Source: Patescibacteria group bacterium
Lineage (GTDB): Bacteria; Patescibacteriota; Minisyncoccia; Minisyncoccales; Staskawiczbacteraceae
DNA: 64,000 nt
Assembly: GCA_018829965.1 (NCBI GenBank)
Contig: JAHJTG010000016.1
Coordinates: 93,537 to 157,536, forward strand
Direction of reading: 5' to 3'
Position numbers and translations under genes: made by a program. A model generated the notes under the pieces. That model had not been told where the DNA came from. It made no database searches and saw nothing but the letters and a program-made list of their open reading frames with translations. Of this stretch, positions 3,810-59,767 are shown one piece after another (the first letter of the stretch is position 1; each line of letters begins with the position of its first letter).

Positions 3810-3998
3810 ATCCCAAACCCTAAACTCTAAATAAGCCCAAATTCCAAAACCCCAAATCCAAAAGTGTTTATAATTATAAGCGAGGATGGAAAAGAAAAAT
3901 TTATTTTTATTTTTCAACCGAGCGAAATAATTATGTGGCAACGCCACAATAATTTAGATATTTGGATTTTGAATTTGTTTAGAATTTAGAGTTTAAAA
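3801..3998. repeat. Composite intergenic palindrome: AAATCCY heptamer arm, AGCGAGG...CCGAGCGA core element (3871-3952), TTTAGRR heptamer arm
   Basis: Read directly: aaatcctaaatcccaaaccctaaactctaaat (3801-3863), then tttagatatttggattttgaatttgtttagaatttagagttt (3953-3998) in inverted orientation. Confidence 0.7.
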
Positions 3999-8938: not shown

Positions 8939-8970
8939 GATTTAGGATTTAGAATTTAGAATAAAAAATC

Positions 8971-12413: not shown

Positions 12414-12420
12414 ATATTTT

Positions 12421-12507
12421 ATAATTACAAGTGAAGGAGGAATATATGGAAACGAGTTTCTATATATTCCGACCGAACGACTAATTATATAAATTGCGGA
12501 GCAATTT
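12421..12507. repeat. AGCGAGG...CCGAGCGA-family modular hairpin element (variant GTGAAGG...CCGAACGA)
   Basis: ataattacaagtgaaggaggaatatatggaaacgagtttctatatattccgaccgaacgactaattatat, plus a second small hairpin. Confidence 0.7.
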
Positions 12508-13332
12508 CTAAACAGCCATTGGCGCTTTAATCGACGGATGATATTTATAGTCAACCAGCTTTATGTCTTCCATCTTAAAACTAAATATATCTTTTACTTC
12601 TGGGTTCAGCCATAATTTTGGCAAAGGATAAGGCTCTCTCGCCAACTGCTCTTTTACCTGGTCAAAATGATTTAAATAAATATGCGTGTCGCCTAAAATA
12701 TGCACAAATTCCCACGGCTCCAATCCCACAACCTGAGCCACCATATGTAAAAACAATGAATAAGAAGCAATATTAAACGGCACGCCTAAAAATGTATCGC
12801 AACTTCTTTGATACATTAACAAAGACAATTTGCCTTGAACGGAAAAAAAATGGAAAAGTAAATGGCAAGGCGGAAGAGCCATCATATCTAACTCTGCCGG
12901 ATTCCATGAAGACGCAATAATTCTTCTGTCTCCAGAATTTTTTTTCAATTGAGAAATAACATTGCTTATCTGATCTATCGGCACATCAGTATAAGGCGAC
13001 CTCCAGTTTCTCCATTGAACTCCATAAACTCTGCCCAAATCTCCCTCAAACTTTGCTTTTGGCTTCCAATAATCTGCATTAGCATTGCCATCCCAAATAT
13101 GACAACCTAGTTTTTGTAACTCTTTTACATCACTGCTTCCAGATAAAAACCAAAGTAATTCTGCTTTCATTGATTCAAATGCTAATTTTTTTGTTGTCAC
13201 TGCAGGAAAACCGTCTTTCATATTAAATCTCATCGGAACTCCGAAAATAGCTCGAGAACCAACTCCAGTTCTGTCAGGTCTATCAACACCCTCATCCATT
13301 ATTTTTTTTAAAACATCTAAATATTGCTTCAT
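12508..13332 (-). CDS. thyA: Thymidylate synthase (ThyA type)
   Basis: 274 aa. DRTGVG, PPCH (LPPCHLLFHF), DTHIY motifs. Confidence 0.95.
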   Translation of the reverse strand: MKQYLDVLKKIMDEGVDRPDRTGVGSRAIFGVPMRFNMKDGFPAVTTKKLAFESMKAELLWFLSGSSDVKELQKLGCHIWDGNANADYWKPKAKFEGDLGRVYGVQWRNWRSPYTDVPIDQISNVISQLKKNSGDRRIIASSWNPAELDMMALPPCHLLFHFFSVQGKLSLLMYQRSCDTFLGVPFNIASYSLFLHMVAQVVGLEPWEFVHILGDTHIYLNHFDQVKEQLAREPYPLPKLWLNPEVKDIFSFKMEDIKLVDYKYHPSIKAPMAV

Positions 13333-13401: not shown

Positions 13402-14106
13402 TTATATTAATTTTTTTAAAAAAATTAATATTTTTTGATTTATTATTTCCGGTGACAATAACTCACTTTTATCCAAACATTCCACAACTTTAAAATCCTT
13501 TGGAAATTCTTTCGCTGCCGTTAAATAAGAATTAAGAGCGTTTTTTAAATGACTTCTGTCTTTTTCGTGTATATCTTGTTTTTTACTACTTCCCAAATAA
13601 GCTTTTCTTCTGTTTTGTTTATCTTTATCTGTTATGTTGTGTGCTAGCTTTAAAGAAAACTCTGGTGACGTTTTCAAAATAAACGTACAATCCGGCTTTG
13701 GTATTTTAAAAATATTATATTCTAAATTATACAACCAATTTACATATTTCTTCCATTCTTTTTTGCTTTTTATCTTTCCTCCTTGATGCCCAATATTTGA
13801 AACTAAATACCTGTCCGAAATAACAATCTTGCCTTCGTTTAACCATTTTTTAATTTTAAAACTAGCGTCATATCTATCACAAGCATAAAAAATAGAGGGA
13901 ACATAAGCCCCCACTTCTTCTGAGCTCCCGTATTTACCTGTTAAGTAATCATCTACTAATGCCGAGGATCTTTCTCCATGTTGTGGAAAATCAATTTTTT
14001 CTACTTTATATCCTTTATCTTTAAAATACTCAATCGCCAATTTTGCCTGAGTGGCTTTGCCACACCCATCAATTCCCTCGAAAACAATAAATTTTCCTTT
14101 TTTCAT
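13402..14106 (-). CDS. tmk: Thymidylate kinase
   Basis: FIVFEGIDGCGKATQ P-loop, DRY motif (SDRYLVS). Confidence 0.85.
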   Translation of the reverse strand: MKKGKFIVFEGIDGCGKATQAKLAIEYFKDKGYKVEKIDFPQHGERSSALVDDYLTGKYGSSEEVGAYVPSIFYACDRYDASFKIKKWLNEGKIVISDRYLVSNIGHQGGKIKSKKEWKKYVNWLYNLEYNIFKIPKPDCTFILKTSPEFSLKLAHNITDKDKQNRRKAYLGSSKKQDIHEKDRSHLKNALNSYLTAAKEFPKDFKVVECLDKSELLSPEIINQKILIFLKKLI

Positions 14107-14198
14107 AATTATGAGCGAGGAAGGGATATATGGAAACTCGTTTCCATATATTCCGACCGAGCGATTAACTATATAAACGGCTTCGCCGTTTATATAGT
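14105..14198. repeat. AGCGAGG...CCGAGCGA modular hairpin element (best-preserved copy)
   Basis: ataattatgagcgagg-aagggatatatggaaac-tc-gtttccatatattcc-gaccgagcga-ttaactat, then the perfect hairpin actatataaacggc-ttc-gccgtttatatagt. Confidence 0.75.
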
Positions 14199-16996: not shown

Positions 16997-17017
16997 ACAC
17001 TTTTTGTTTCACAAAAG

Positions 17018-17149
17018 AAACTCTAAATTCTAAGCTCTAAACTCTAAACAATATCAAAACTCTAAATTCAAATAATTAAAACGTTTTTAGATTTTGAATA
17101 TTTAATATTTGGATTTATTTAGGATTTAGGATTTGGGATTTAGGATTTT
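17018..17149. repeat. Arm-inverted heptamer arrays (CTCTAAA-type arm, then TTTAGGA-type arm) forming a ~130-bp imperfect palindrome
   Basis: Left arm 17018-17074, right arm 17084-17149. Fills the secE-nusG spacer. Confidence 0.7.
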
Positions 17150-17156
17150 ATTAATA

Positions 17157-17366
17157 TTATTTATATAAGATGAATCTCTTAATTAATTCCGTAAAAATAT
17201 AGTCCAAACCGCCCAAGAAAGCAGCTGCCACAAAGGTAATTAAAATTACAATCATTGTGTATTTAAAAAGTTCCTGGCGGTTCAACCAATTAACTTTTCT
17301 GAGTTCTATATATACTTCCTTCAAAAAACTTTTAGTTTTAGCTGGAATATTAGAAATTTTGATCAT
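17157..17366 (-). CDS. secE: Preprotein translocase subunit SecE
   Basis: 69 aa. KEVYIELRKVNW motif plus a single C-terminal TM helix. Classical position upstream of nusG. Confidence 0.8.
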   Translation of the reverse strand: MIKISNIPAKTKSFLKEVYIELRKVNWLNRQELFKYTMIVILITFVAAAFLGGLDYIFTELIKRFILYK

Positions 17367-18139: not shown

Positions 18140-20779
18140 TTATATATCTAAGTTCTTTACCGTCTTTGCATGAGTCTGGATAAATTTCTTTCTTGGCTCT
18201 ACCTCTTCGCCCATTAAAATATCAAAAATTTTATCTGCCTCTCTGGCGGTATCAATTGTAACCCTTAATAATAATCTATTTTGAGGATTCATTGTTGTCT
18301 CCCAAAGCTGTATTGAATCCATTTCTCCCAAACCTTTATATCGTTGGATAGAAATACTTTGATTTTTATTAACTGTTTTCAAAAGCTTCTCTTTTTGTTC
18401 GTCGTTATAGACATGCTTTATTTCTCTGCCAATCTGTATTTTATAAAGCGGTGGCTGAGCGATATAAATATATCCAGCGTCAACCAATGGTCTGAAGTGA
18501 CGATAGAAAAGAGTTAAAAGTAATGTCCTAATATGGGCGCCATCAACATCAGCATCAGTCATAATAATAACTCTATGATATCTTAGTTTTTCTATATTAA
18601 AATCTTCGCCAATCGCTGTCCCTAGAGCAATAACCAAAGCTCTTATCTCTTTTGAATCCAACATTTTGTCCAAACGAGCCCTTTCCACATTTAGAATCTT
18701 GCCTCGTAAAGGTAAAATCGCTTGAAAATGCCGGTCTCTTGCTTGTTTTGCGCTATTATGAACAAAAACCCCCGATGCCAATGCAAAGTTATGAGTATTC
18801 TTAACTTCTAAATCATAAACATCTACCCTTTCTTTCAATTTAACTATTCTTTTAATTTTATGGTTATAGCTTGAAACTGTTTGTTCTAATACTCTTTCTT
18901 TTCTAAAACATTCTTTATGAAAAGGCATTAAAGAATCTTCTGTTTTTAAGTCTTTTGCCATTTTGTAATTTCCGCCCCTCAACATAAACTTGTGATCTGG
19001 CGTACAAATCATCTCTTCGTCATTATCTAAAACAACTTTAATAACTTCTGCGTTTTCTTTTGTTTTTCTTGGATTATCAATTGGCTCGATTCCAACACTA
19101 CCGTCATTTTTAATTGTATAACAATAATTCTTCTTTCCTTGTTTATGTTCTTCAACCAAATTTTCAAAAGATAAGTTTCTTCCATCAGCTAAAGCAACTT
19201 CAGTTTTTCCAAACCAACAACCACCGGCACTCTCTCCTTCGACGATATACAATTCTGATTCTTCTGGTTTTCTTGAAAGACAATCTGCAAGTTTTCCAGG
19301 CAACGCTAATCCTTCTAATACTCCTTTTCTTAAAACTGTCTGACGAGCGCTTTTTGCCGCTTGCCTGGCTTTTGCCGCCAATAAACAGTTTTCAACAATT
19401 CCTTTAGCATCTGATGGGTAACGTTCTAAATAATCGCTTAAACCTTCTGCCACAGCTGTCTCTACGGCGTTTTTGGCTTCTGGGTTTCCTAATTTTGCTT
19501 TTGTCTGGCCCTCAAATTGAGGATTCCTTATTTTTACAGAAATTACTGAAGTTAATCCTTCTCTTACGTCTTCACCTGAAAGATTTTCATCTTTTTCTTT
19601 TAAGTATCCTTCCCTTCTAGCATAATCATTTAATGACCTCGTTAAAGCCGCCCTAAAACCAGTTAAATGAGTGCCTCCTTCTGGAGTATAGATATTATTG
19701 GCAAAACTTTCTTCAATGCATTCCATCTCTTGGGTATATTGAAAAGCTGCTTCAACTGCGATTTCGTTTTTTGTAGTAGCTATGCTGAAAACATTAGGAT
19801 TTCTTGGTGTATTCCCAGTAGTTAAATATTTTACGTAAGAAGCCACTCCCCCTTCAAAATAAAAGGCGTAGCTAAATTTCTCTTTAGAATTTCTTTCATC
19901 TGAAAAAGAAATCCTAACCCCCTTAGTAAGATAAGCCTGTTGGCGTAAATGATTTAGAATCTTCTTAGAATCAAATTTTATCTCTTTAAAAATATCTGGA
20001 TCTGCTTGGAAAGTAACAGTGGTTCCTGTCTTTCTGCAAGCTCCTATTTTTTTAACCGGAGACTTTACATCACCCTTAGCATATTCCTGCATATACAAAC
20101 CGCCATCTCTGCAAACTTCTGCTCTCATTTGAATAGACAATGCGCAAACAACAGAAACGCCGACACCATGCAAGCCTCCAGATACCTGATATGCTTTACT
20201 ACCAAATTTACCACCAGCATGTAAAACCGTCATTACAGTTTCTAATGCTGATTTTTTAGTTTGAGAATGTTTTTCTACTGGAATGCCTCTGCCATCATCA
20301 GAGACTTTAACCAAATTGTCTTGCAAAAGAGAAACCTCTATATTTTTACAATGACCAGCCATCGCTTCATCCAAGCTATTATCAATAACCTCCCAAATTA
20401 AATGATGAAGACCATCCAAACCAGTTGAGCCAATATACATTGCTGGTCTTTTTCTTACCGCCTCAAGACCTTTTAAAACATAAATATCTTTAGCTGTGTA
20501 TTCGTCCTTTCCTGTTTTTTCTTTTAAAGGCTTCTCGTCTCTCACTGTCTCAATAACCTCTTTTTCTACTTTAGTTTGTCTTGTTTTAGTTTTAATAGAT
20601 TCAACCTTAGTCGGTTTAACTTTAGCCACAACAGCTTTCTTGACTATTTTTTCAGCTTTTGGTTTCTTCTTTCCCTCACCTGCAACGCTATGCCAGCCCG
20701 CAGTAGATACAGCGTTTCTGGCGGGCGAAACATTGCGGGCAGGTTCTTTTATCTCTCTTATTTTTATTTTTATAGCCAT
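18140..20779 (-). CDS. gyrB: DNA gyrase subunit B, interrupted by a mini-intein. The long Lys-rich 5' extension is of uncertain translation.
   Basis: VLKGLEAVRKRPAMYIG, GGLHGVG, EGESAGG|intein|SAKQARDR, Toprim and C-terminal motifs. Possible alternative GTG start at 20545. Confidence 0.9.
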   Translation of the reverse strand: MAIKIKIREIKEPARNVSPARNAVSTAGWHSVAGEGKKKPKAEKIVKKAVVAKVKPTKVESIKTKTRQTKVEKEVIETVRDEKPLKEKTGKDEYTAKDIYVLKGLEAVRKRPAMYIGSTGLDGLHHLIWEVIDNSLDEAMAGHCKNIEVSLLQDNLVKVSDDGRGIPVEKHSQTKKSALETVMTVLHAGGKFGSKAYQVSGGLHGVGVSVVCALSIQMRAEVCRDGGLYMQEYAKGDVKSPVKKIGACRKTGTTVTFQADPDIFKEIKFDSKKILNHLRQQAYLTKGVRISFSDERNSKEKFSYAFYFEGGVASYVKYLTTGNTPRNPNVFSIATTKNEIAVEAAFQYTQEMECIEESFANNIYTPEGGTHLTGFRAALTRSLNDYARREGYLKEKDENLSGEDVREGLTSVISVKIRNPQFEGQTKAKLGNPEAKNAVETAVAEGLSDYLERYPSDAKGIVENCLLAAKARQAAKSARQTVLRKGVLEGLALPGKLADCLSRKPEESELYIVEGESAGGCWFGKTEVALADGRNLSFENLVEEHKQGKKNYCYTIKNDGSVGIEPIDNPRKTKENAEVIKVVLDNDEEMICTPDHKFMLRGGNYKMAKDLKTEDSLMPFHKECFRKERVLEQTVSSYNHKIKRIVKLKERVDVYDLEVKNTHNFALASGVFVHNSAKQARDRHFQAILPLRGKILNVERARLDKMLDSKEIRALVIALGTAIGEDFNIEKLRYHRVIIMTDADVDGAHIRTLLLTLFYRHFRPLVDAGYIYIAQPPLYKIQIGREIKHVYNDEQKEKLLKTVNKNQSISIQRYKGLGEMDSIQLWETTMNPQNRLLLRVTIDTAREADKIFDILMGEEVEPRKKFIQTHAKTVKNLDI
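18755..19219 (-). mobile_element. Mini-intein (155 aa, no endonuclease domain) in the GyrB EGDSAGG-SAKQGRD site
   Basis: Starts CWFGKTEV (Cys1), block B TPDH, ends GVFVHN followed by Ser+1. The exteins rejoin to the conserved EGESAGGSAKQARDR. Confidence 0.85.
20676..20742. repeat. GC-rich palindromic element type B (core tgccagcccgcagtagatacagcgtttctggcgggcg)
   Basis: The 37-bp core at 20691-20727 is 35/37 identical to 53807-53843. Outer stem acctgc/gcaggt. Confidence 0.75.
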
Positions 20780-20842: not shown

Positions 20843-22048
20843 TTAACGCAATGTAGCTCCCAAGTCCTGTTTAGTCTTTTCCCTAATTTCTTCTTGAATT
20901 TTATTTATCTCTTCATTTGTCAGCGTTCTTTCTGGCGAACGATAAACAATCCTGAACGTATAGCTCTTCTTGTCTTTTCCAAACTTACTTTCATCTTCGT
21001 ATTCGTCAATTAATTTCACCTCTTCAATAATTCCAACATTTGAATTTTCTGTCCCGACGGCTCTGCCGTCGAGGATCCTCGATGACGAAGTCATCGGGAC
21101 AAAATCTCTTACAATTTCGTAATAATTATTCAAATTTATATTTTTGTCTATCACAAAAGAAATATCTCTTGAGGTTTCCGGATACTTGCTTACTTCTTTA
21201 TACTTGCTATTAATATCTTTAAATTGGCTGGTAATTCTTAGGTCATCCGACCAAAGAACTCTAATATCTGGTATTCCCATTTTTACCATTGCTAACCTAT
21301 CTATCCCGAAGCCGAAAGCCCAGCCATTGTAAACTTCCGGATCTAAACCAAAATTCTTCAAAACCTGCTTATGAACAAGTCCCGACCCAACAACTTCCAT
21401 CCATTGCTCACCCAACTTAATATCCATCTCTACTGACGGATCCGTAAAAGGGAAAGAGTCAACGATAAACTTATGCTCAACCTTTTCTCCAAAGATACTT
21501 TTTCCGATATCGGCTAAAATATCTTTCAAATCTTCTAGGGTGATAACTTTTTGGTCTTTTTTGCAAATATATAGTCCGTCTATTTGATGAAAGGCAGGAA
21601 AATGATTTTTATCAATTTCATCTTTGCGGAAAACTATTCCAGTTGATAAAGCCCCAACACTCCCCTTTTCTTTTAATCTTTTAAAAATCTCAGGATCTCT
21701 TAAATAAAAAGGCCACATAACTGTTGTCTGCGTTCTTAAAACATATTCGTCTGTAAGGTAATAGGTATCTGTTTCTCTGCGACTCGGGTGGCCTTCTGGA
21801 GTATTTAAAACATCGAAGTTCTCTTCTAATGTAACCACTCTAGGAAAATCGACTAAATCAAAATCAGCAAATCTTGACAATTTTATTATCTGATTAGCTA
21901 AAATCTTTACAGGAGAATTCTGCTTCTTTGTAAGGTCAGGAAGGTTTAATAATTTTTTGATTCTCTCTGCTTTAATATCTTTCCTCTTCCCCAACTCCTC
22001 AATAATAGCGCCTTCTTTAGAGTTTTCTATTACGATATTTTTACGCAT
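20843..22048 (-). CDS. pheS: Phenylalanine--tRNA ligase, apparent single-chain type: PheS catalytic core fused to a C-terminal FDX-ACB (anticodon-binding) domain
   Basis: Motif 2 FRKDEIDKNHFPAFHQIDG. Motif 3 GWAFGFGIDRLAMVKMGIPDIRVLWSDDLR. C-terminus YPETSRDISFVI...KSYTFRIVYRSPERTLTNEEIN. Confidence 0.85.
   Translation of the reverse strand: MRKNIVIENSKEGAIIEELGKRKDIKAERIKKLLNLPDLTKKQNSPVKILANQIIKLSRFADFDLVDFPRVVTLEENFDVLNTPEGHPSRRETDTYYLTDEYVLRTQTTVMWPFYLRDPEIFKRLKEKGSVGALSTGIVFRKDEIDKNHFPAFHQIDGLYICKKDQKVITLEDLKDILADIGKSIFGEKVEHKFIVDSFPFTDPSVEMDIKLGEQWMEVVGSGLVHKQVLKNFGLDPEVYNGWAFGFGIDRLAMVKMGIPDIRVLWSDDLRITSQFKDINSKYKEVSKYPETSRDISFVIDKNINLNNYYEIVRDFVPMTSSSRILDGRAVGTENSNVGIIEEVKLIDEYEDESKFGKDKKSYTFRIVYRSPERTLTNEEINKIQEEIREKTKQDLGATLR
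21051..21100. repeat. GC-rich palindromic element type A, in frame inside pheS
   Basis: gtcccga-cggctctgccg-tcgaggatcctcga-tgacgaagtca-tcgggac. Translated VPMTSSSRILDGRAVGT. Confidence 0.8.
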
Positions 22049-23126: not shown

Positions 23127-25817
23127 TCACCCCACCCTGCGACTCAATATAGTTTTTGTAACAAAAATCCTCTTTTTGAAAAATTCAATCAATGAAATTT
23201 CTATCAAACTGACGCTAAAAATGGCTAACCATTCCATTATGCTTAACGGCTGGGTGGCTAAAAGTTTTTGCAGCGGCGGAAGATAGATGCTGGAAAAAAG
23301 CAAAACGAATCCAATAATAACACCGCCAACCAAGTAGCGGTTAGAAAATATGTCTTTCCTAAAGATGGTTCTTTGAAACGAGCGGACTGAAAAAGCGAGG
23401 ATAAGAGAAGCGACGCACATAAACGCAAAAACCATTGTTCGTGTTTTATCAAGGTCTTCAGTAAACTTCCAGAAAAAAATAAAAAATAGGAACGCATTTA
23501 TCCCAGTAATAAAGAAAATGGTGGTCATCCAGCGTTTCATATCCTTATTTAGTATCGGTTCTTTAGGATTCCTTGGTTTCTCGTCCATCAATCCTTTGGT
23601 CTCTTGTTCTGTGGTAAGGGCAATATCTGGAAATCCGCTTTCAACAAGGTTTATCCAAAGAATCTGGGCTGGCAATAATGGAAGCGGAAGCCCCATTGCC
23701 ATACTTACCAAAAATAAAAATAGTTCTGAAAAATCATTTACTACAAGATAAACAAACACTTTACGAATGTTTCCGAAAATCACCCTGCCTTGCTCAATGG
23801 CTTTTAATATCGTTTTGAAATTGTCGTCCAATAATATCAAATCGGCCACTTCTTTTGCCACATCTGTGCCAGAACCAACGGCAACCCCAATATCGGCTAA
23901 TTTAAGGGCTGGAGCGTCATTAACGCCATCACCAAGCATTGCCACCACCTCTCCATTAGCTTGAAGGACGCTAACAATTCTTAATTTATGGCGTGGGGAT
24001 ACACGGGCGTAAATAGAGATAGTCTTTGCTTTTTCTTTTAACTCGTCATCGCTTATTGTCTCCAAATCCTTACCCTCAATTATGTTATCGTCTTCTGCCC
24101 CAAGACCAATCTCTTCAGCAACGGCTTTAGCGGTAAATTTATGGTCTCCCGTAACAATAACTGTGCGGATACCAGCCTTTTTAGTGATTAAAATTGATTC
24201 CTTGGCGTCTTGACGAAGCGGGTCTTTAAGAGCGATAAAACTAACAAGTGAAAGGCCATTAACTAATTCTGTAAGATTTTGATATTTTGTTTTGGAATCG
24301 TAATCCCTATGGGCACAAGCAAGAACACGTAATCCTTTCTGTGTGAGCGTTTCTAATTTCTTTATTAATTTATTCACTTGAGCCGTACCTAATTTATCCG
24401 TTCTGCCATCAACATCCAAATCAACAGAACGAGCAATAATCTCCTCTGGCGCTCCGACAACATAAAGCATATTTTGCTTCTCGTCTTTGCGATGAAAAGT
24501 GGCGGCAAATTTGTAATCCGATTCAAAGCTGATTCTATCCAATATGGGATATTGCTCTTCCAGTTCTTTTTTATTCAAACCCAACTGCATTCCTGCCAGA
24601 AGCAATGCCTGTTCGGTTGGTCTGCCTCGCACCACCCATTTTTCCAATTCCGCCTCTGGGTTTTCCACAAAGGCTTCGTTTGTCAAAATGGCGATTTTTA
24701 ACGCCAAGAGATGTGATTCAACGCCATTAATATTTTTGTCTTTAGCGAGCCCTCTAATGTTGCCTCCCATCAGTTCTTTTGTGCTCGTCAAAATATGGCT
24801 TACCTGCATTTTTCCTTCGGTAAGAGTACCCGTTTTATCAGTGCAAATGACAGTTACGCTTCCCAAAGTCTCTGTGGCGGCAAGTTTTCTTACCAGACCG
24901 CCCTGTTTGAAAATACGCCTCATCCCTAAAACTAATATAACTGTAATAGCTGGAAGCAATCCTTCGGGTATCGCTGAAACTGCAAGGGCAAGGGAGGCTA
25001 TAAAAACATCTATAAAATTCTTTTCAGTAAAATAACCCTCAATGATGATAATGGCGATTATAGACAGAATGAAAATGCTAAGCCACCCTGAGAGAGTTAC
25101 AATTTTCCGTTGCAGAGGAGTTTTGCGTTCTTTTGTTTCTTTAAGAAGCGACACAACTTCTCCGATTTGCGTATTAATTCCAGTAGCGATAATTACTATT
25201 GTAGCTCGTCCTTCCTCTACAATCGTACTCATAAAAACCGTATTCGTTCTTTCGGAAAGCGACGCTGATTCAGAAAGGTTATCACCAGCCTTTTTTTCAA
25301 CCGCCAACCATTCTCCCGTAAGGCTCGCTTCATCTATCTTTAAGTTTTTTGATTCAATAATGCGTCCATCTGCTGGCACTTTATCTCCTGATTTTAGAAA
25401 CACCACATCTCCAACAACTAATTCCTCGCTGTCTATTTCTTTTTCATAGCCATTCCGCAAAACTTTCGTCCTCACTTTTACCATTTTCTTTAGAGCGAGA
25501 AGCGACTGATTGGCTTTATTTTCTTGATAAAATCCGACAGTAGTGTTAATAAGCAACACAATAATAATAAAGATGGAGTCTGAATAGTGCTTCAATAGAA
25601 AAGAAACAACAACGGTCGCAAGCAAAATATACATTAATGGACCGTTGAACTGACTCAAAAACAGCCGCATCTTGGAATACGGTTTTTCTTGAGGGAGAGT
25701 ATTTCTTCCAAACCTTTTAAGTCTCTCCGCCGCCTCTTGGTTGGTGAGACCATCTTTTCTGCTTCCTGTTTCGACAAAAATTTTCTCTAATGAAATTGTG
25801 TGCCAATTTTTTTTCAT
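23127..25817 (-). CDS. P-type cation-transporting ATPase (type II, Ca2+/Mg2+-like)
   Basis: DKTGTLT phosphorylation site, TGDHKFTA, GDGVNDAPAL, about 10 TM helices. Start taken at MKKNWHTISLEKIF. Confidence 0.9.
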   Translation of the reverse strand: MKKNWHTISLEKIFVETGSRKDGLTNQEAAERLKRFGRNTLPQEKPYSKMRLFLSQFNGPLMYILLATVVVSFLLKHYSDSIFIIIVLLINTTVGFYQENKANQSLLALKKMVKVRTKVLRNGYEKEIDSEELVVGDVVFLKSGDKVPADGRIIESKNLKIDEASLTGEWLAVEKKAGDNLSESASLSERTNTVFMSTIVEEGRATIVIIATGINTQIGEVVSLLKETKERKTPLQRKIVTLSGWLSIFILSIIAIIIIEGYFTEKNFIDVFIASLALAVSAIPEGLLPAITVILVLGMRRIFKQGGLVRKLAATETLGSVTVICTDKTGTLTEGKMQVSHILTSTKELMGGNIRGLAKDKNINGVESHLLALKIAILTNEAFVENPEAELEKWVVRGRPTEQALLLAGMQLGLNKKELEEQYPILDRISFESDYKFAATFHRKDEKQNMLYVVGAPEEIIARSVDLDVDGRTDKLGTAQVNKLIKKLETLTQKGLRVLACAHRDYDSKTKYQNLTELVNGLSLVSFIALKDPLRQDAKESILITKKAGIRTVIVTGDHKFTAKAVAEEIGLGAEDDNIIEGKDLETISDDELKEKAKTISIYARVSPRHKLRIVSVLQANGEVVAMLGDGVNDAPALKLADIGVAVGSGTDVAKEVADLILLDDNFKTILKAIEQGRVIFGNIRKVFVYLVVNDFSELFLFLVSMAMGLPLPLLPAQILWINLVESGFPDIALTTEQETKGLMDEKPRNPKEPILNKDMKRWMTTIFFITGINAFLFFIFFWKFTEDLDKTRTMVFAFMCVASLILAFSVRSFQRTIFRKDIFSNRYLVGGVIIGFVLLFSSIYLPPLQKLLATQPLSIMEWLAIFSVSLIEISLIEFFKKRIFVTKTILSRRVG

Positions 25818-25834
25818 AACTAATTTAATTCTAA

Positions 25835-25866
25835 CAAAAAACCACCTCAATTAAAAGGTGGTTTTT
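25835..25866 (-). terminator. Strong stem-loop plus U-tract located 18 nt upstream of the ATPase start codon (leader terminator or attenuator candidate)
   Basis: Minus strand reads aaccacct-tttaattg-aggtggtt followed by TTTTTG. Confidence 0.55.
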
Positions 25867-25869
25867 AAC

Positions 25870-26035
25870 AACGCGCCCAGTGCTTTGCCCGTCCGTAGCT
25901 TTAGCGAAAGAGGGCTTTGTCCTGCCGTAGTTTTAACGAAGGCGGAGGACGCAGTTCCCTGCCCGCAATGCTAAAGCATAGCTTTTGCAGACGGGGAACT
26001 TGGTTTTGGGAAAACTTCCCAGTGGTAGAACCGAA
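25870..26035. repeat. Array of four GC-rich hairpins, two with the GCTAAAGCTACGG-type loop
   Basis: gcccgtccgtagctttagcgaaagagggc, gtcctgccgtagttttaacgaaggcggaggac, agttccct...ggggaact, gggaactt...aacttccc. Confidence 0.6.
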
Positions 26036-30542: not shown

Positions 30543-30830
30543 CCCACGACGGGATTTGAATTAAAAATAATCGGGAAAAGTTCTGAAATACTTTTACCCC
30601 TCTAAAATATGCCTGTTTTCAGAACCGTCAAAATAAGTTTAAAACAGGCGATTTTCGTCTACTTATTCCGTCGTGCGCGGGCGACGGGCCTCCTTTGCTA
30701 AAGCTACGGACGGCCAAAGGATTTGAATAACGGGTTCATTCACCCACCACAACAACACATAAAAATAAAATGCCCACGAGGGGCATTTATTTTTATGCGC
30801 CCGCGTGAGGATTTGAACCGGACGGGTCAC
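30543..30830 (-). other. Cluster of three decayed tRNA 3'-end-like fragments (integration scars)
   Basis: 30543-30575, 30669-30750 (tgcgcgggcgacggg...atttgaataacggg, split by a hairpin insertion) and 30796-30830. Compare the tRNA-Asp 3' end tgcgcgggtgacgggatttgaacccg. Confidence 0.55.
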
Positions 30831-33617: not shown

Positions 33618-33692
33618 CGCGGGTGACGGGATTTGAACCCGTGATCTGATCCGTGACAGGGATCCGAGGACTCCAGACTCCTCCACACCCGC
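33618..33692 (-). tRNA. tRNA-Asp (GUC)
   Basis: Manual cloverleaf: GCGGGTG/CACCCGC acceptor, GATCC-CTGTCAC-GGATC anticodon arm, ACGGG-TTCAAAT-CCCGT T arm, G73. CCA not encoded. Confidence 0.9.
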
Positions 33693-33759: not shown

Positions 33760-33831
33760 TGCCGACGGCTGGAATCGGACCAGCGACCTTAGCCTTATGA
33801 AGACTCTGCTCTACCACTGAGCTACGCCGGC
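33760..33831 (-). tRNA. tRNA with CAU anticodon (elongator Met or Ile2-lysidine type)
   Basis: GCCGGCG/CGTCGGC acceptor (one G-U pair), GCTC-AGTGGTA-GAGC D arm, loop TTCATAA, unusual T loop TCCGATT. Confidence 0.8.
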
Positions 33832-35390: not shown

Positions 35391-37319
35391 TTACTGCCTG
35401 CTCTTAAATATCTCCAAGAATGCCCGATGGGAGATTTCAACCCTCCCCTTCTCCTTTAATAGCTTTTTTCCTTTCTTCTGTTTCTCTAAAAGTTTTCTTT
35501 TTCTTGTCACATCTCCTCCGTATAGATAACCGGTGACATCCTTTCTTCTGGCCCTGATTGTTTCACGGGCTAAAACCTTGCCTTGAACTACTGCCTGCAA
35601 AGCAACTGAGAATTGTTCCGGAGGCAAAACATCTTTTAATTTTTCTACCAAAAACTTTCCTTCCCTATATGCTTCGTCTTCGGAAACAATCTTTGAAAAC
35701 GCTTCTTCTGAGTGTCCTGCAATCCAAATTTCCATTTTTACCAAATTACCTGGCCTAAAACCTAAAACCTTATAGTTCATTGAAGCATAACCTTGGCTTA
35801 CGCTTTTTACTTTATCGTAAAGATTGCTAATAATCCCGCGCAAAGGCACTTCATAAATAATAATTGCCCTATCTTGGCCAAAATATTGGGTATCAACATA
35901 GATTCCTCCGGTATTTTTTAAAATATCAGAAAGCTTGCTTATGTAAACACTCGGGGTAATAAGCTCTAAAGACACCCAAGGCTCTTCAGTTTTTTGGATA
36001 AAGGTAGCATCCGGCCAATCCGAAGCTGAATAGATAAATTCTTCTTTGCCCTTTTGATTAAAGATTTTATAAACAACCGATGGCGTTGAAATCACTAGAT
36101 TAAGACCGAATTCTCTTCTTAGTCTTTCAGAAGCAATCTCAACGTGTAAAGTACCTAAAAATCCGCATCTGTATCCTCTGCCTAAAGCTTCTTTTGTTTC
36201 GGGCTCAAATATAAAAGATGGGTCGCTTAACTTTAGTTTTGCCAATGCGTCTTTTAATAAATCAAAGTCGCCAGCATCCTGCGGATAAAAACTGGCAAAA
36301 ACCATTGGTCTTGGTTCTAGATAACCATGCAGGGGTTGGATTTCAGAGGCTTTTAATTTAAACTGCTGGCTTGAAACAATTGTATCGCCGACCCTTACCT
36401 TGCCTGGCTCTTTAATTCCTGTAGCAATATATCCGATTTCACCTGCTGAAATCTTTCCTTGAGCAACAGGTCCTGGCATAAAATATCCTATTTCTTTTAT
36501 CTCTGCTTCAGTATTCGTAACCATCAACCTTACTCTCTCGCCTGCGTTAATTTCACCATCAACAACTCTGATAAAAGCAATGACTCCTTTATAGGCATCA
36601 TAATCTGAATCAAAAATTAAAGCCCTAAAAGGTTTTTGAGTATTTATTTCTGGAACAGGAACTTCTTCAATAATTTTACTTAAAAGAGTATCTACATTAG
36701 CTCCTGTTTTCCCAGAGATTCTAAGAATTTTCTCCGGATCAATGCTTAAAAGATTAGCGATTTCTAAAGCGCTTTCTTCAATTCTGGCATCTGGCGCATC
36801 TATTTTATTCACCACAGGAATTATTACTAAATTTTGTTGTTTAGCCAACTCTAAATTAGCTAATGTCTGGGCTTGAATGCCTTGAGTGGCATCAACCAAT
36901 AAAACTGCTCCTTCAACTGCAGCCAAAGCTCTTGAAACTTCGTAGGAGAAATCAACGTGGCCTGGAGTATCTACCAAGTTCAAAACATATTTTAAACTTG
37001 GAAACTCTAAATTCGAAGCACTAAATTCTAAACTATTGGTTTCGGATTTTGGGTTTTGGGTTTTGGGTTTATTTAGAATTTCGGATTTAGGATTTAGGAT
37101 TTGCGAATGATATATCATTCGTACTGGTTTAAGTTTAATTGTAATCCCCTTTTCTCTTTCTAAGTCCATTCTATCCAAAAACTGCGGTTTCATTTTACCC
37201 GGCTTTACCGCTCCAGTTATTTCTAAAAATCTATCGGCTAAGGTAGATTTCCCATGGTCAATATGGCTAATAATTACAAAATTACGTATATTCTCCTGCA
37301 TATTTATATTTTTTACCAA
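35391..37319 (-). CDS. lepA: Elongation factor 4 (LepA)
   Basis: NFVIISHIDHGKSTL, DTPGHVDF, NKID, LepA C-terminal domain. Contains a ~37-codon heptamer-array insertion. Confidence 0.93.
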   Translation of the reverse strand: MVKNINMQENIRNFVIISHIDHGKSTLADRFLEITGAVKPGKMKPQFLDRMDLEREKGITIKLKPVRMIYHSQILNPKSEILNKPKTQNPKSETNSLEFSASNLEFPSLKYVLNLVDTPGHVDFSYEVSRALAAVEGAVLLVDATQGIQAQTLANLELAKQQNLVIIPVVNKIDAPDARIEESALEIANLLSIDPEKILRISGKTGANVDTLLSKIIEEVPVPEINTQKPFRALIFDSDYDAYKGVIAFIRVVDGEINAGERVRLMVTNTEAEIKEIGYFMPGPVAQGKISAGEIGYIATGIKEPGKVRVGDTIVSSQQFKLKASEIQPLHGYLEPRPMVFASFYPQDAGDFDLLKDALAKLKLSDPSFIFEPETKEALGRGYRCGFLGTLHVEIASERLRREFGLNLVISTPSVVYKIFNQKGKEEFIYSASDWPDATFIQKTEEPWVSLELITPSVYISKLSDILKNTGGIYVDTQYFGQDRAIIIYEVPLRGIISNLYDKVKSVSQGYASMNYKVLGFRPGNLVKMEIWIAGHSEEAFSKIVSEDEAYREGKFLVEKLKDVLPPEQFSVALQAVVQGKVLARETIRARRKDVTGYLYGGDVTRKRKLLEKQKKGKKLLKEKGRVEISHRAFLEIFKSRQ

Positions 37320-39607: not shown

Positions 39608-39862
39608 AAGCGAGGTGTTAGCGTTAAAAGTAAATTTCACAGGCTCAATTCCCAATCTGTTGAGCGAGGCGACGAGTTTAAAGATAAATTTCGCAGGCTC
39701 AATTCCCAAACTGTTAAGCGAGGCGACGAGTTTAAAAGTAAATTTCGCAGGCAATTTAGCATGGTTTCGCCGATTGGCGACCGCAACCGACCGCAACACC
39801 GGGTGTTGCGGAGTAAGGGGTTTGGATTATCGCCACTTTTATGGCTACTGCCGAGCGACATT
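39608..39862. repeat. Expanded AGCGAGG...CCGAGCGA element: ~2.6 tandem 54-55-bp units plus a conserved ~110-bp GC-rich module
   Basis: Units start at 39608, 39663 and 39717. The tail gcatggtttcgccgattggcg...ccgcaacaccgggtgttgcgg...attatcgccacttttat...ccgagcgaca is shared with 44618-44826. Confidence 0.7.
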
Positions 39863-41901: not shown

Positions 41902-41904
41902 AAT

Positions 41905-42280
41905 ATCTCAACAAGACTATAAGCCGAATTCTGTTCTATGTGATCATCTGTCTGGACCAAAAATTACTCTTTGGTTCTTGCGAACTACTTTTAACAGAAA
42001 TTCAAGATGAAATTAACCTAAATTTCTGCTTTGTTCTTGCGCCCAGTAAGGATTTAGCCGTTTCATTTCCGTATTACTACGGAATTCGCCCCCCTTCGCA
42101 TAAAGCTACGGAAGGGCGTTTTAATCCTTTCGAATTAAAACGTTTCTGCTCGCACCTCTAACCTCGCGGTCGACGGCTGTTAGCCGCTACTTTTTTAGAG
42201 TCGCCTAAGCGACAATGGGTGTTCGGACTTTCCTCCCTTTATCAATTAAGATAAAGAGCGATCACTCGTCTTGTTGAGAC
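41905..42280 (-). ncRNA. rnpB: RNase P RNA (bacterial type A)
   Basis: P1 TCTCAACAAGAC/GTCTTGTTGAGA. P3 hairpin CTTTATC-TTAATT-GATAAAG. CR-I GGGAGGAAAGTCCGAACACCC. CR-V ACAGAATTCGGCTTATAG. Confidence 0.85.
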
Positions 42281-44544: not shown

Positions 44545-44587
44545 TCCCGACTTCGTCGAGGATCCTCGATGGCTTCGCCATCGGGAC
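44545..44587. repeat. GC-rich palindromic element type A, intergenic copy
   Basis: tcccga-cttcgtcg-aggatcctcga-tggcttcgcca-tcgggac. Confidence 0.8.
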
Positions 44588-44617
44588 AATGAATTTTTAA
44601 TTATCTAATCTTCAAAA

Positions 44618-44826
44618 TGTTAAGTGAGGCAATAATGTATACGGAGCACTTCGCGGAGCCAAGCTAAACTGTTAAGCGAGGTGGTAGTTATAAAAGTGCC
44701 TCTCGCGGGCGATTTTGCATGGCTTCGCCGATTGGCGGCCGCAACACCGGGTGTTGCGGAGTTGGTGTTGCGAAGTGAGGGGTTTGAATTATCGCCACTT
44801 TTATAACTACTACCGAGCGACACTCT
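44618..44826. repeat. Expanded AGCGAGG...CCGAGCGA element with a 15-bp perfect stem enclosing the conserved GC-rich module
   Basis: gtagttataaaagtg (about 44684) pairs with cacttttataactac (about 44796). The cargo contains the ccgcaacaccgggtgttgcgg hairpin. Confidence 0.7.
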
Positions 44827-53658: not shown

Positions 53659-54231
53659 TTATAGTCTTTCCACAATTTTTAATTCTACACTATCCTTCTC
53701 CGTATCATAAACAGCGAAAGTTGGCTTAAAGATTTGACCTGCAGCTTCACCGGGGTTAATTAATAAGCATCCTTTTTCTTCCCCGCTCGCAACGCTTCGC
53801 TTCGCTTGCCAGCCCGCAGTAGATACAACGTTTCTGACGGGCGTAGCGATGCGGACGAGCCATGGCTTATGAGTATGGCCGTAAAAAACTATATCGTATT
53901 TTCCTGATTCGGCTAATTGTTTAGCCGGCTCTAATTTATGGATAACAGCTATTTTTTTACCGTCTAATTCTATTTCCAAGGGTTCTTGAACAACTTTGAT
54001 TGTCGACGGATTTTGATATTCCTCTATCCTTATATCCCAATCTTTATCCATATTGCCAAAAATCCCAAGAAATTCTCCTTTGAAATTTGCCAAAGACTCC
54101 TTCAATGATTCCGGGCTGCCGATATCGCCGCAATGCAAAATAGTCTTTATATTTTCTTTGTTTACCCATTCAACAATTTTTTTAAAAGTTGCAGTATTAC
54201 CGTGAGTATCAGAAATAATTACGATTTTCAT
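53659..54231 (-). CDS. Metallophosphoesterase (YfcE/MJ0936 family) with an in-frame repeat insertion
   Basis: MKIVIISDTHGN, HCGDIG, GNMD, GHTHKP...INPG. Confidence 0.8.
   Translation of the reverse strand: MKIVIISDTHGNTATFKKIVEWVNKENIKTILHCGDIGSPESLKESLANFKGEFLGIFGNMDKDWDIRIEEYQNPSTIKVVQEPLEIELDGKKIAVIHKLEPAKQLAESGKYDIVFYGHTHKPWLVRIATPVRNVVSTAGWQAKRSVASGEEKGCLLINPGEAAGQIFKPTFAVYDTEKDSVELKIVERL
53781..53860. repeat. GC-rich palindromic element type B, in frame inside the phosphoesterase gene
   Basis: Core 53807-53843. Translated RIATPVRNVVSTAGWQAKRSVASGEE between the conserved GHTHKP and INPG motifs. Confidence 0.8.
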
Positions 54232-54235
54232 CGTA

Positions 54236-54478
54236 TTATTTAATATATTTAAATCTTGGAACTTTTTTACCACCAATTTCTACCTTTTCTAAAAACATTT
54301 TAAGCGGTCTAACCCAAAGCTCGCCGTCGCCCCTCATCCGCTTGCGAGCTTCGGACGGACAAGCATAAAGCGATTTATAGACAACTAATTCTTCTAAGGT
54401 TTCGCTATGTTTGGCAGTGCCTAAAACCTCGTAATTATTCCCTTTAAAATGCTGGTAAATTCCTGTTTTGATTTCCAT
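54236..54478 (-). CDS. DUF1653-domain protein
   Basis: GIYQHFKGNNYEVLGTAKHSETLEELVVYKSLY...LWVRP. Confidence 0.7.
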   Translation of the reverse strand: MEIKTGIYQHFKGNNYEVLGTAKHSETLEELVVYKSLYACPSEARKRMRGDGELWVRPLKMFLEKVEIGGKKVPRFKYIK

Positions 54479-55086: not shown

Positions 55087-57576
55087 TTATTTTCCATGGC
55101 AGTGTTTGTACTTTATCGGACGACCATCTTCATGCTTCGCTCCGCATGGACAAGGATCATTTCTGCCAACTTCTCCTTTAGGTTTTGGTGCCTGCCCGCC
55201 TAAATGCGACGGCTTTTGGCGGGTTAATTCAGCTTTTAAAATATTATTAGCAATAGCAATCTCTGTCTCTTCTAAAAATCTTTGGAACATTCTTCTCCCC
55301 TCTCTTTTATATTCTATCAACGGATCCTGCTGGCCGTAAGCCCTTAATCGCACGGAATCCCTTAAATAATCCATATCTTCCAAATGTTCTATCCAATAAG
55401 TGTCTAAAACTCTAAGAGAGACAAATTTTAGAATTTGCTCCATATTCTCTTTGCCGATTTCTTTTTCTTTCTTATTATAATCCTCTTCTGTAAATCCAGC
55501 CTTTTTAATAATCTCTAAAATATATTCTTTTAAATTATTTTGGTCATTGGTTATTGGGGTTTGTCCCGCGAAGCGGGATCCCGTCTCGCGGGAGGATTTT
55601 TCTAGTATCTCTTTTCTCTTTTTATAAAATACCTCTCGGTGTTTATTCATTACCTCGTCGTATTCTAAAATATGTTTTCTGGAGTCAAAATGAAACCCCT
55701 CAACTTTTTCTTGGGCTGAAGCGATTGCTTTTGAAATCATTCCTGATTCTATTGGCTGGTCTTCTGGAATATTAAAAGTATTCATTATGTTCTTTATCCT
55801 GTCCCCGCCGAAAACTCTCATCAAATCGTCTTCTAAAGACACGAAAAACTGGGAAGAGCCGGGGTCTCCCTGCCTGCCAGACCTTCCTCGCAACTGGTCA
55901 TCAATTCTTCTTGCTTCGTGCCTTTCTGTGCCAATAACGTGAAGCCCGCCTGCTTCTATAACTTTCTTCTGCTCTTCCAAGTCCGGCGGATTCCCCCCCA
56001 AGATTATATCCACGCCTCTTCCTGCCATATTAGTAGCAATGGTTACAGCTCCAAGTTTTCCTGCTTGAGCAATAGTTTCAGCTTCTTTCTCATGATTCTT
56101 GGCATTTAAAATCTGGTGCCGAATCCCCTCTCTTTCTAATAGTTTCCCCAAAAACTCATTCTTTTCAATTGAAACCGTTCCGACTAAAACTGGCTGGCCT
56201 TTTTTATTCCTTTCTTTGATTTCGTTCACAACCGACTTAAACTTTCCTTCAATAGATTTATATACCCTATCTGGTAGATATTCTCTTATAAGTGGCTTAT
56301 TCGTAGGGATAGAAACGACTTCTAATTTATATACTTTATCAAATTCTTCGGCAGAAGTCTGGGCAGTGCCGGTCATACCAGATAGTTTTTTATACATCCT
56401 AAAATAGTTTTGAAAAGTAATTGTTGCCCATGTTTTTGATTCCTCCTGAACATCAACTCCTTCTTTGGCCTCAACTGCCTGATGCAGACCCGCAGACCAG
56501 CGACGGCCAGGCATTAACCTGCCGGTAAATTCATCTACGATTATAACCTTCCCGTCTTTTACAACATAATTTTTATCTTTTTGAAATAATGTTTTTGCTT
56601 TTAGAGCTGATTCTAATTGATGAATCGTCGTAATGTCGCTATCTAACCAAGGGTCGGAACCAAGGCTTTTTATCATTTTTACCTGACCCTGTTCAGTAAA
56701 AGTAGCTACTCTTAATTTCTCGTCTAATTCATAGTCTTCTTTTTCTTGTAAGCCTATTACTAATTTCGCAAATTGATAATATTTTCCGGTCGGCTCCCCG
56801 CCTGGAGAAGAAATAATTAAGGGGGTTCTTGCCTCATCAATTAAAATAGAGTCTATCTCATCAACAATCGCATAGTTATGACCCCGCTGGGATTGCTCTT
56901 GCAAGCTATGAACCATATTATCTTTTAAATAATCAAAGCCGAATTCATTGTTCGTGCCATAAGTAATGTCAACTGAATACGCTTCTTTTCTGGAAACCGG
57001 CCTTAAGAAGTCTTCCATGACCTTAAAGCTTCCTATCGAGTCTCTAATTTTATCTTCTGTCTCTTCTGCTTTCTTATATCCAGAATCATAGACAAAAGAT
57101 TGTTCGTGATTCAAACAACCTACTGTCAAGCCAAGAAAATGGTATATCTGGCCCATCCAAACAGTGTCTCTTCTTGCTAAATAATCATTGACCGTAATAA
57201 TATGAACGCCCTTTTCAGTTAAGGCATTTAAGTAAGCTGACAAAGTAGCGGTTAATGTTTTTCCTTCTCCTGTTTTCATTTCTGCAATTTGGCCTTGGTG
57301 TAAAACAATGCCACCGATCATTTGAACGTCAAAATGACGTTGTGAAAGTACTCTTTTTGATGCCTCGCGGACTACGCCAAAAGTCTCTGACAATAAATCG
57401 TCCACTGTTTTCCCATTAGCTAATTGTTCTTTAAACTCTTTAGTCTTATTTCTTAATTCCTCATCAGAAAGCTTTTGAAGAGCTGCTTCAAAAGAGCCTA
57501 TTTCAGCAATTATTGGGTCTAGTTTTTTTAGATTTTTCTGATGGACATCACCGAAAATCTTTGTGAAGATTGACAT
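55087..57576 (-). CDS. secA: Preprotein translocase ATPase SecA
   Basis: MKTGEGKTL, DEIDSILIDEARTPLIIS, TNMAGRGVDI, C-terminal zinc motif CPCG...HCHG. Confidence 0.95.
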   Translation of the reverse strand: MSIFTKIFGDVHQKNLKKLDPIIAEIGSFEAALQKLSDEELRNKTKEFKEQLANGKTVDDLLSETFGVVREASKRVLSQRHFDVQMIGGIVLHQGQIAEMKTGEGKTLTATLSAYLNALTEKGVHIITVNDYLARRDTVWMGQIYHFLGLTVGCLNHEQSFVYDSGYKKAEETEDKIRDSIGSFKVMEDFLRPVSRKEAYSVDITYGTNNEFGFDYLKDNMVHSLQEQSQRGHNYAIVDEIDSILIDEARTPLIISSPGGEPTGKYYQFAKLVIGLQEKEDYELDEKLRVATFTEQGQVKMIKSLGSDPWLDSDITTIHQLESALKAKTLFQKDKNYVVKDGKVIIVDEFTGRLMPGRRWSAGLHQAVEAKEGVDVQEESKTWATITFQNYFRMYKKLSGMTGTAQTSAEEFDKVYKLEVVSIPTNKPLIREYLPDRVYKSIEGKFKSVVNEIKERNKKGQPVLVGTVSIEKNEFLGKLLEREGIRHQILNAKNHEKEAETIAQAGKLGAVTIATNMAGRGVDIILGGNPPDLEEQKKVIEAGGLHVIGTERHEARRIDDQLRGRSGRQGDPGSSQFFVSLEDDLMRVFGGDRIKNIMNTFNIPEDQPIESGMISKAIASAQEKVEGFHFDSRKHILEYDEVMNKHREVFYKKRKEILEKSSRETGSRFAGQTPITNDQNNLKEYILEIIKKAGFTEEDYNKKEKEIGKENMEQILKFVSLRVLDTYWIEHLEDMDYLRDSVRLRAYGQQDPLIEYKREGRRMFQRFLEETEIAIANNILKAELTRQKPSHLGGQAPKPKGEVGRNDPCPCGAKHEDGRPIKYKHCHGK

Positions 57577-59666: not shown

Positions 59667-59681
59667 AATATTAGATGTTGG

Positions 59682-59767
59682 GTGTCCCGACTTCGTCGAG
59701 GATCCCCGATGGTTCCGACTTTGTCGAGAATCCTCGACTTTGTCGGGACTTCGCCATCGGGATTAGT
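59682..59767. mobile_element. Nested or double GC-rich palindromic element type A, flanked by a 13-bp perfect direct repeat
   Basis: tattagatgttgg occurs at 59669-59681 and 59768-59780. Interior: gtcccgacttcgtcgaggatcc...ttccgactttgtcgagaatcctcgactttgtcgggac...ttcgccatcggga. Confidence 0.75.

Follow-up and report, generated by a model that had tools for sequence, protein, structure and literature searches.

How does a GC-rich, palindromic stretch of DNA come to be carried within the reading frames of two unrelated housekeeping genes in an AT-rich Patescibacteria genome? This question is raised by the window analyzed here, a contiguous 64-kb (64,000 nt) stretch of a Patescibacteria contig, in which a 37-nt core occurs on the + strand at 20691-20727 and again at 53807-53843. 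The original prediction had reported two sites with 35/37 identity, and both the coordinates and the identity were reproduced; the degenerate core pattern matched exactly these 2 sites in 64 kb against an expectation of 0.00 from 100 dinucleotide-preserving shuffles, and no further core copy was found in the window when up to 3 mismatches were allowed. The two elements form islands of ~60% G+C in a window of 35% G+C. The proposed extent holds for the 37-nt core itself, but the true repeat is larger, spanning 78 nt at 53782-53859 and 69 nt at 20675-20743; when the two copies are aligned, the length beyond 37 nt corresponds to diverged arms that are still imperfectly complementary to each other. 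Both copies lie in minus-strand ORFs in the same orientation and frame, as had been proposed, and read RNVVSTAGW in the phosphoesterase and RNAVSTAGW in gyrB. A local assembly artefact could be excluded because an independent Logan assembly (L001) carries an identical phosphoesterase allele.

We searched for relatives of these elements with a 21-nt core pattern (GCAGTAGATACANCGTTTCTG), which demands 20 exact bases, using one genome per species and extracting pieces of ~8 kb around each copy as loci. This census returned 48 loci with ~50 distinct copies, nearly all from records titled Patescibacteria and distributed over several classes (by title, Parcubacteria/Paceibacterota, Saccharibacteria, Curtissbacteria, Moranbacteria, and Nomurabacteria), together with one MAG for which the record title alone indicates Gammaproteobacteria. 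A single MAG (JBAZNQ01) contained at least 14 copies. Lining up the ~50 copies defined a canonical 69-nt element composed of an 18-nt arm (CCYGCCYGCAWYGCTWYG), a 33-nt core (CCAGCCCGCAGTAGATACAGCGTTTCTGGCGGG), and an inverted arm, such that the arm unit and its inverted copy form a 36-nt imperfect palindrome with the core placed exactly at the dyad.

The modules of this repeat family also occur in other combinations. Among the loci examined, 31 arm-core-arm copies had exactly 33 nt between the arms and 11 were arms-only 36-mers, and arm pairs nested within arm pairs were observed as well (L007 3499-3570, L068). Cores were found without arms (in MetG of L007, and in L009) or at the center of unrelated palindromes (L028, L010/L016, and a JBAZNQ01 subfamily), and could face either way with respect to the arms, which are slightly asymmetric: between class A (L008-type) and class B copies (L047-type), the arm sequences are exactly reverse-complemented while the core keeps its orientation. 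All module lengths (18, 33, 36, 69, 72, and 78 nt) are multiples of three. A further arm variant, CTCG...CGAG, was recovered in a metagenome scan as a subfamily present in UvrC, UvrB, UvrA, RecJ, YchF, L31, and GatB, and its orientation within genes is not uniform, with the UvrA copy in the opposite orientation and the copy of a MiaB-like gene in another phase. In some cases, a single gene or a pair of neighbors harbors two independent arm-family members, including MnmA (L011 612-1907), MetG and TatD (L007, 1357-2796 and 2759-3712), AtpC and HolB (L034), and UvrC and LeuS (L056), which indicates that the load of intragenic copies is high in some Patescibacteria genomes.

Within the window, the family is represented by two cored copies and one arms-only copy. 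The gyrB copy (20675-20743, minus strand, read as PARNVSPARNAVSTAGWHSVAGE) is canonical, with arms at 20675-20692 and 20726-20743 around a core at 20693-20725. The phosphoesterase copy (53782-53859, minus strand, read as LVRIATPVRNVVSTAGWQAKRSVASG between codons W124 and E151) shows the same layout with 9 extra nt. From 5' to 3' on the coding strand, it consists of an arm of the CTCG subfamily at 53842-53859 (CTCGTCCGCATCGCTACG, LVRIAT), the 33-nt core module at 53809-53841 (CCAGCCCGCAGTAGATACAACGTTTCTGACGGG on the + strand, PVRNVVSTAGW on the coding strand), the extra 9 nt at 53800-53808 (CTTCGCTTG on the + strand, QAK), and the second arm at 53782-53799 (CGAAGCGTTGCGAGCGGG, RSVASG). The extra segment, which from its sequence resembles a partial duplication of an arm end, widens the gap between the arms to 42 nt vs 33 and keeps the reading frame. 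The arms-only copy is a related hairpin (CCTGCCCGCAATGCTAAAGCATAGCTTTTGCAGACGGG) at 25958-25996, in an intergenic position upstream of the ORF at 23127-25850.

The original prediction had suggested folding the element, and a stable hairpin was indeed predicted (-31 to -40 kcal/mol), although the z-scores against shuffled sequences are modest (-1.5 to -2.8) and the outer arms lack covariation. Across 31 copies, the core stem is 98.6% paired and includes one truly compensatory pair (C-G to U-A), seen in 6 copies as the double change from CCCGC/GCGGG to CTCGC/GCGAG, and in a diverged core (L039 6737) three apical G·T/A·C mismatches are converted to Watson-Crick pairs. The outer helix of the same 31 copies is 77.5% paired and displays no positive covariation; its variable positions (all either the Y of a YG or W) show less pairing than shuffled controls. 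A long outer hairpin supported by covariation was thus rejected as a candidate, since the variable arm positions pair below the level of shuffles. The absence of outer covariation can be traced to an asymmetric founder arm pair that is found either way round with respect to the core, and the under-pairing suggests that selection may not have maintained the long hairpin, which would simply follow from the inversion of the arm units.

These structural features bear directly on whether the element is a functional nucleic-acid signal rather than merely selfish DNA, i.e. a conserved hairpin bound or recognized by a conserved Patescibacteria factor, with possible roles in mRNA stability, termination, chromosome organization, or recombination, and with genic copies being either tolerated side effects or regulators of host mRNA translation. 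Such a signal would be consistent with the compensatory changes in the core and apical stems, with the stability of the predicted hairpins, and with the fact that a majority of copies are intergenic. It would also be consistent with the core showing little or no variation between Parcubacteria, Microgenomates, and Saccharibacteria, a level of identity between class-level lineages that is unusual for selfish repeats and hints at either function or frequent horizontal spread. This conservation is, however, partly an ascertainment effect, as the search pattern itself required 20 exact bases, and the modest z-scores do not set the fold far apart from shuffled sequences. Intergenic copies occur in tandem, convergent, and divergent contexts without any preferred gene arrangement, the transcribed strand can be either one, and cored copies are sparse, with 2 in the 64-kb window and 0 in 147 kb of loci that had not been selected for the core. 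Similarly, Rfam at gathering thresholds identified within the window just an RNase P RNA and two tRNAs, and even at E <= 10 returned nothing meaningful for the element, i.e. no RNA or intron family. On this evidence, we consider a functional signal unlikely. Two specific roles were evaluated: a main role as terminator was dropped, given the lack of gene-arrangement preference among intergenic copies, and a DNA-uptake sequence was ruled out by the copy density.

The first host gene, the phosphoesterase (53659-54231, minus strand, 190 aa from an ATG at 54231), encodes an MJ0936/YfcE-type metallophosphoesterase (Pfam Metallophos_2, E 3e-30) whose metal-binding motifs are all intact and conserved when compared to its orthologs. 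The element sits between GHTHKPW and INPGE, as originally described, and its 26 codons (78 nt) match the ~26 residues that it had been said to add to an otherwise compact fold, orthologs being typically 166 aa long. A majority of these orthologs (84/118) read GHTHxPWEEKIGNCRLINPGE, with WEEKIGNC at the place of the insert, and the window protein has its 26 additional residues directly after PW. In an AlphaFold model of the window protein (mean pLDDT 86.5), the core fold is predicted with values > 90, and only residues 133-151 fall < 50, as a low-confidence excursion inside the insert; the LVRI of the insert is modelled as the strand that EEKI normally forms. The model thus places the insert at what appears to be a structurally permissive, surface position. 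Separately, in other Patescibacteria, the loop after GHTHxP(W/C) and the next beta-turn are hot spots for peptides of unrelated GC-rich repeats (for example CLARRSFNEGGGRKKE and LVHPKPNGEGGSE, in orthologs P0007, P0008, P0015, P0030, P0034, P0052, P0102, P0118, and others), and an expansion at these places was observed in 34 of the 118 orthologs in total.

Comparing orthologs with and without the insert, a further check suggested by the original prediction, revealed a clean presence/absence polymorphism. Only 3 of the 118 close orthologs carry an insert of this family, and the two carriers other than the window gene, P0002 and P0004, contain the 36-nt arm pair alone at the identical codon boundary (CTCGCCCGCATCGCTACGCGAAGCGTTGCGAGCGGG, read as LARIATRSVASG). 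Their nearest relatives are free of it: P0006 is 89% identical to P0002 at the nucleotide level, P0098 is 89% identical to P0004 at the amino-acid level, and each displays a clean 12-codon gap. P0002 and P0004 are themselves 69% identical to each other, and it looks likely that carriers are scattered among non-carriers in this protein family. No target-site duplication was detected at the phosphoesterase site, where the empty form reads CCATGG|GAGGAT (P0006) and the filled form CCATGG[36 or 78 nt]GAAGAA.

The same comparison weighs on the possibility that the segment is ancient, vertically inherited, and domesticated, having entered the phosphoesterase once in an ancestor and been kept for a useful peptide or hairpin, with present-day absences reflecting precise losses. 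Three lineages share the same arm subfamily at the identical codon boundary, and their arm pairs are nearly identical (36/36 between P0002 and P0004, and 35/36 between the window copy and both) vs host genes that are only 69-74% identical at the nucleotide level and 50-56% at third positions; in addition, a 2-nt GG microhomology would permit precise, hairpin-stimulated deletion. Yet only 3 of the 118 orthologs are carriers, two of which have nearest relatives cleanly devoid of the insert, and the 36-mer shared by P0002 and P0004 is also found unchanged in UvrC and RecJ of other genomes, which points to an active or homogenised subfamily instead of local constraint. We therefore assign little probability to an ancient, domesticated segment. 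The arm-pair identity is better read as that of a circulating subfamily, because the CTCG variant also occurs in other genes, and for the same reason the notion that this variant is private to the phosphoesterase site, as expected from a single ancient insertion, was discarded. A narrow permissive site together with a preference for codon boundaries explains only loosely why one arm subfamily occurs at one codon boundary in three non-sister lineages. As for the 33-nt core, it probably joined the phosphoesterase arm pair secondarily: two lineages bear the 36-nt arms alone at the same codon boundary, and no cored copy apart from the one in the window phosphoesterase has CTCG arms, so that a resident arm pair later gaining a core at its dyad would be the simplest history.

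The second host gene is gyrB (18140-20779, minus strand, with Pfam gyrase B domains), in which the element makes up residues 13-35 of a conserved K/E-rich N-terminal tail. The original prediction had placed this copy in a 5' extension of the gyrB ORF, and homologs now confirm that the extension is genuine coding sequence: parcubacterial GyrB proteins share a common MKLNIK start followed by a K/E-rich tail of 40-110 aa, which makes the ORF start at 20779 credible and locates the element inside the coding sequence. The tail varies in length, and in relatives it holds peptides of other GC-rich repeats (SFAKASADK, RTLTPS..., PSPKASEGRG, and EPFDKTQGK, among homologs P0147, P0151, P0155, P0203, P0209, P0124, and P0207), which suggests that the GyrB N-terminal tail is a general sink for such insertions. 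The same protein also contains a mini-intein (CWFGK...VFVHNS) in its Toprim region (residues 529-675; 18755-19195, minus strand; Pfam Intein_splicing, E 2e-18).

Two alternatives had been offered for the frame and orientation shared by the two window copies, namely selection for a tolerated peptide or a directional insertion mechanism, and these were evaluated across the whole family. The 69-mer can be read without stops in four of its six frames, so that two copies would share one frame by chance in about 1 of 4 cases. In total, ~20 host genes were verified with Pfam domain matches flanking the insert on both sides, including MetG, MnmA, ThrS, HolA, AtpC, TsaD, YchF, DUF362, TatD, and LeuS, along with MiaB-like, UvrA, UvrB, UvrC, RecJ, L31, GatB, HolB, and SufS-like genes. 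Pfam-verified genic cored copies are read as ARNAVSTAGW in both window genes, AtpC, YchF, and DUF362, as PARSRYSVSGG in MetG, MnmA, and ThrS, and as QPAVDTAFLAG in HolA and TsaD, ARNAVSTAGW being the commonest genic reading seen. A protein word search with peptides of the four open frames, for which the word index limits retrieval, yielded 11 proteins, all in the ARNAVSTAGW frame, adding IscU, IF-1, YbeY, and another AtpC. Genic copies use three reading frames and both orientations, so the frame shared by the two window copies is not a rule of the family.

A frame bias is nevertheless present at a different level. Of 21 Pfam-verified genic copies of arm-defined elements, ~17 start on a codon boundary, on either strand (binomial 1.6e-4 against 0.4), the exceptions being TatD, LeuS, the MiaB-like gene, and the second MnmA insert. 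In the 69-mer, the codon-boundary frame encodes a hydrophilic peptide rich in P/A/R/N/S/T/G (GRAVY -0.6 to -0.1), whereas the other open frame is hydrophobic (GRAVY +0.5 to +0.9) and the third contains stops. Cored copies are also in large excess outside of genes, with 10-12 of 50 located in genes and ~80% intergenic, vs a coding density of ~87% in the window. The proposal of a bias in frame and orientation is thus upheld in part, as a frame bias exists and host ORFs are left undisrupted, with neither frame nor orientation being fixed; random frames with most copies disrupting ORFs were not what the census returned. Selection for a tolerated peptide fits this distribution, and we infer that selection is the cause of the frame bias. 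A directional insertion mechanism, on the other hand, is not supported, given copies in both orientations within genes, a core read in three frames, and both orientations of the core relative to its own arms.

These constraints also make it very improbable that the insert is excised in an intron-like manner or bypassed by the ribosome as in mitochondrial 'byp', with proteins made without the extra peptide: strong hairpins inside essential genes and GC-rich hairpins seemingly pervasive in this genome, including in pheS, secA, and a DUF1653 gene, would agree with such a process, but module lengths that are always multiples of three and genic copies that avoid stop frames and favor the hydrophilic one would be needless in an untranslated segment, the 9-nt extra segment keeps frame, and Rfam provided no intron family match. 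The insert is instead probably translated as an extra disordered loop, in which case junction-spanning peptides are predicted, namely HKPWLVRIATPVR, STAGWHSVAGEGK, NVVSTAGWQAK, EPARNVSPAR, and ...STAGWQAK....

Taken together, we consider it likely that the phosphoesterase insert belongs to a repeat family of modular, GC-rich, imperfect palindromes, REP/MITE-like selfish DNA whose genic copies have been filtered by selection. Under this scenario, copies would land or arise throughout the genome and most survivors would be intergenic, with a genic copy surviving if its length is a multiple of three, if it offers a stop-free frame (preferably the hydrophilic, codon-boundary one), and if it falls at a permissive site of the protein. 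Here, these sites would be the loop that follows GHTHKPW in the phosphoesterase and, in GyrB, the disordered N-terminal tail, and the element would be transcribed and translated along with its host gene, adding a disordered loop to the protein. In the phosphoesterase, a resident 36-nt arm pair would have acquired the core secondarily, other lineages keeping the pair alone. Cores would enter arm palindromes at their dyads in either orientation, and could also reside alone or inside unrelated palindromes.

Insertion at the dyad, the occurrence of both core orientations, the retention of recipient arms, and the 9-nt slip are consistent with center modules being transferred by gene conversion between homologous arms or by a putative hairpin-specific enzyme, which we regard as the most probable routes. 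No transposase or other associated enzyme was seen, and the flanks of the ~50 copies displayed neither consistent direct repeats indicative of target-site duplication nor a target consensus, so that mobility is inferred from how the copies are distributed and from their polymorphism. A MITE of the DDE type would be expected to leave target duplications, and their absence speaks against it. A scan of viral contigs for the core yielded no match, leaving a phage origin without evidence. One could tentatively extend this scenario to codon-quantised hairpin modules (the 18-nt arms, the 36-nt arm pairs, and the 33-nt core) that form one system throughout the phylum, insert specifically into palindrome dyads and less often into genes, and move between class-level lineages almost unchanged, although we regard this as possible rather than probable. 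If true, it would imply an undescribed hairpin-targeting mobilisation enzyme or a repair-driven 'palindrome growth', and the repeats would serve CPR bacteria, with their reduced proteomes, as a general source of new surface loops.

Among known systems, the closest analogue is provided by the Rickettsia palindromic elements, repeats that lie in frame within housekeeping genes and leave the ORF preserved (Ogata et al. 2000, as summarised in PMC10969869). Both are palindromic families of small, AT-rich genomes with many in-frame copies in unrelated housekeeping genes and others in intergenic positions, and both add a conserved peptide at fold-compatible positions. The present family is likewise multi-copy and palindromic, and is found in frame in unrelated genes whose ORFs are preserved. 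Compared to the Rickettsia elements, the modules described here are much shorter (33-78 nt vs ~100-150 bp), belong to another phylum, are presumably unrelated in sequence, are codon-sized and nested at dyads, and share a core across class-level lineages rather than within one genus; based on the differences in length and host phylum, we treat the family as an analogue and not a member.

REP/REPIN elements, which are mobilised by RAYT proteins (IS200/IS605-like Y1 transposases), provide a second point of comparison. They are short (20-40 nt), GC-rich, imperfect palindromes that are mostly extragenic, form longer hairpins as inverted pairs, and lack target-site duplications, and the units described here similarly are 33- and 36-nt imperfect palindromes with ~80% of cored copies intergenic. 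However, REPs are essentially extragenic and species-specific, whereas a fifth of the cored copies in this family lie in genes, in frame; no RAYT gene was identified in the analysis, which covered pieces of ~8 kb around copies. Yeast mitochondrial GC clusters and 'byp' elements are GC-rich hairpin insertions in AT-rich genomes, including within protein-coding genes, and resemble the present elements in these respects; both are however organellar, and the 'byp' elements, over which the ribosome skips, can lie out of frame, unlike the codon-quantised and frame-biased modules of Patescibacteria. Bacterial MITEs such as ERIC, BOX, Correia, and Nezha can also be found inside genes, as small, non-autonomous repeats with inverted ends for which in-frame fusions are possible (PMC10969869). 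In contrast to MITEs, whose terminal inverted repeats derive from a parent IS and which generate target-site duplications, no duplication is observed at the phosphoesterase sites, and for the arms, themselves inverted repeats, no parent element is known. The elements also do not correspond to a self-splicing intron or known structured RNA, in that no curated RNA family matches them.

A literature search for palindromic, MITE, or REP-like repeats in CPR/Patescibacteria did not return any report, and as far as we found, in-frame palindromic elements have apparently not yet been described for this phylum. CPR/Patescibacteria proteins often display odd insertions and match profile models poorly. 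A translated palindromic repeat family would account for part of these insertions, and annotators could recognize and mask such segments. The family would also represent a second, independent natural system beside Rickettsia in which to study how selfish DNA makes protein loops when genomes are reduced. An undescribed mechanism of mobilisation or homogenisation is suggested both by the nested, modular anatomy and by a core that is identical across classes. Fresh insertions could be caught in existing population metagenomes of groundwater CPR bacteria.

Several other repeats and features were identified in the window. Another GC-rich palindromic family (GTCCCGACGG...CGTCGAGGATCCTCGATG...), presumably the 'first family' of the original prediction, occurs at 21045-21102, 44554-44589, and 59677-59761, and a copy of it lies in frame in pheS (20843-22048, minus strand), read as PMTSSSRILDGRAVGTENSN between the catalytic and FDX-ACB domains. 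GC-rich hairpin islands were also found in frame in secA (55087-57576, minus strand), at 55553-55602 and 55184-55224 (SRETGSRFAGQTPITN; PSHLGGQAPKPK), and in a DUF1653 gene (54236-54478, minus strand), at 54302-54364, the latter encoding a protein of 80 aa vs a 62-position profile. In-frame hairpin inserts hence seem to be pervasive in this genome. The Rfam matches in the window are a class A RNase P RNA (41904-42277, minus strand, 136 bits) and tRNA genes at 33618-33692 and 33760-33831 (both minus strand).

Between genes, AT-rich arrays of an 8-nt unit (GGATTTAG/GAATTTAG) form long inverted repeats at 3800-3995, 8926-8971, 11238-11320, 17017-17181, and 37001-37103 (families D1-D3 and D8; I1 and I2), and in other genomes several cored elements were observed inside similar arrays (L024, L040, L043). 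Two copies of a 94-nt AT-rich palindromic repeat, 78% identical to each other, occur at 12417-12510 and 14101-14194 (D6, I3, I22). Two regions ~5 kb apart, 39609-39860 and 44666-44822, each contain 54-nt tandem units followed by a shared GC-rich segment of ~140 nt (D4, D11, D16). Finally, three GC-rich hairpins are clustered at 25860-26000, upstream of the ORF at 23127-25850, and the one at 25883-25913 shows 90% complementarity to a partner at 30689-30719 (I18).
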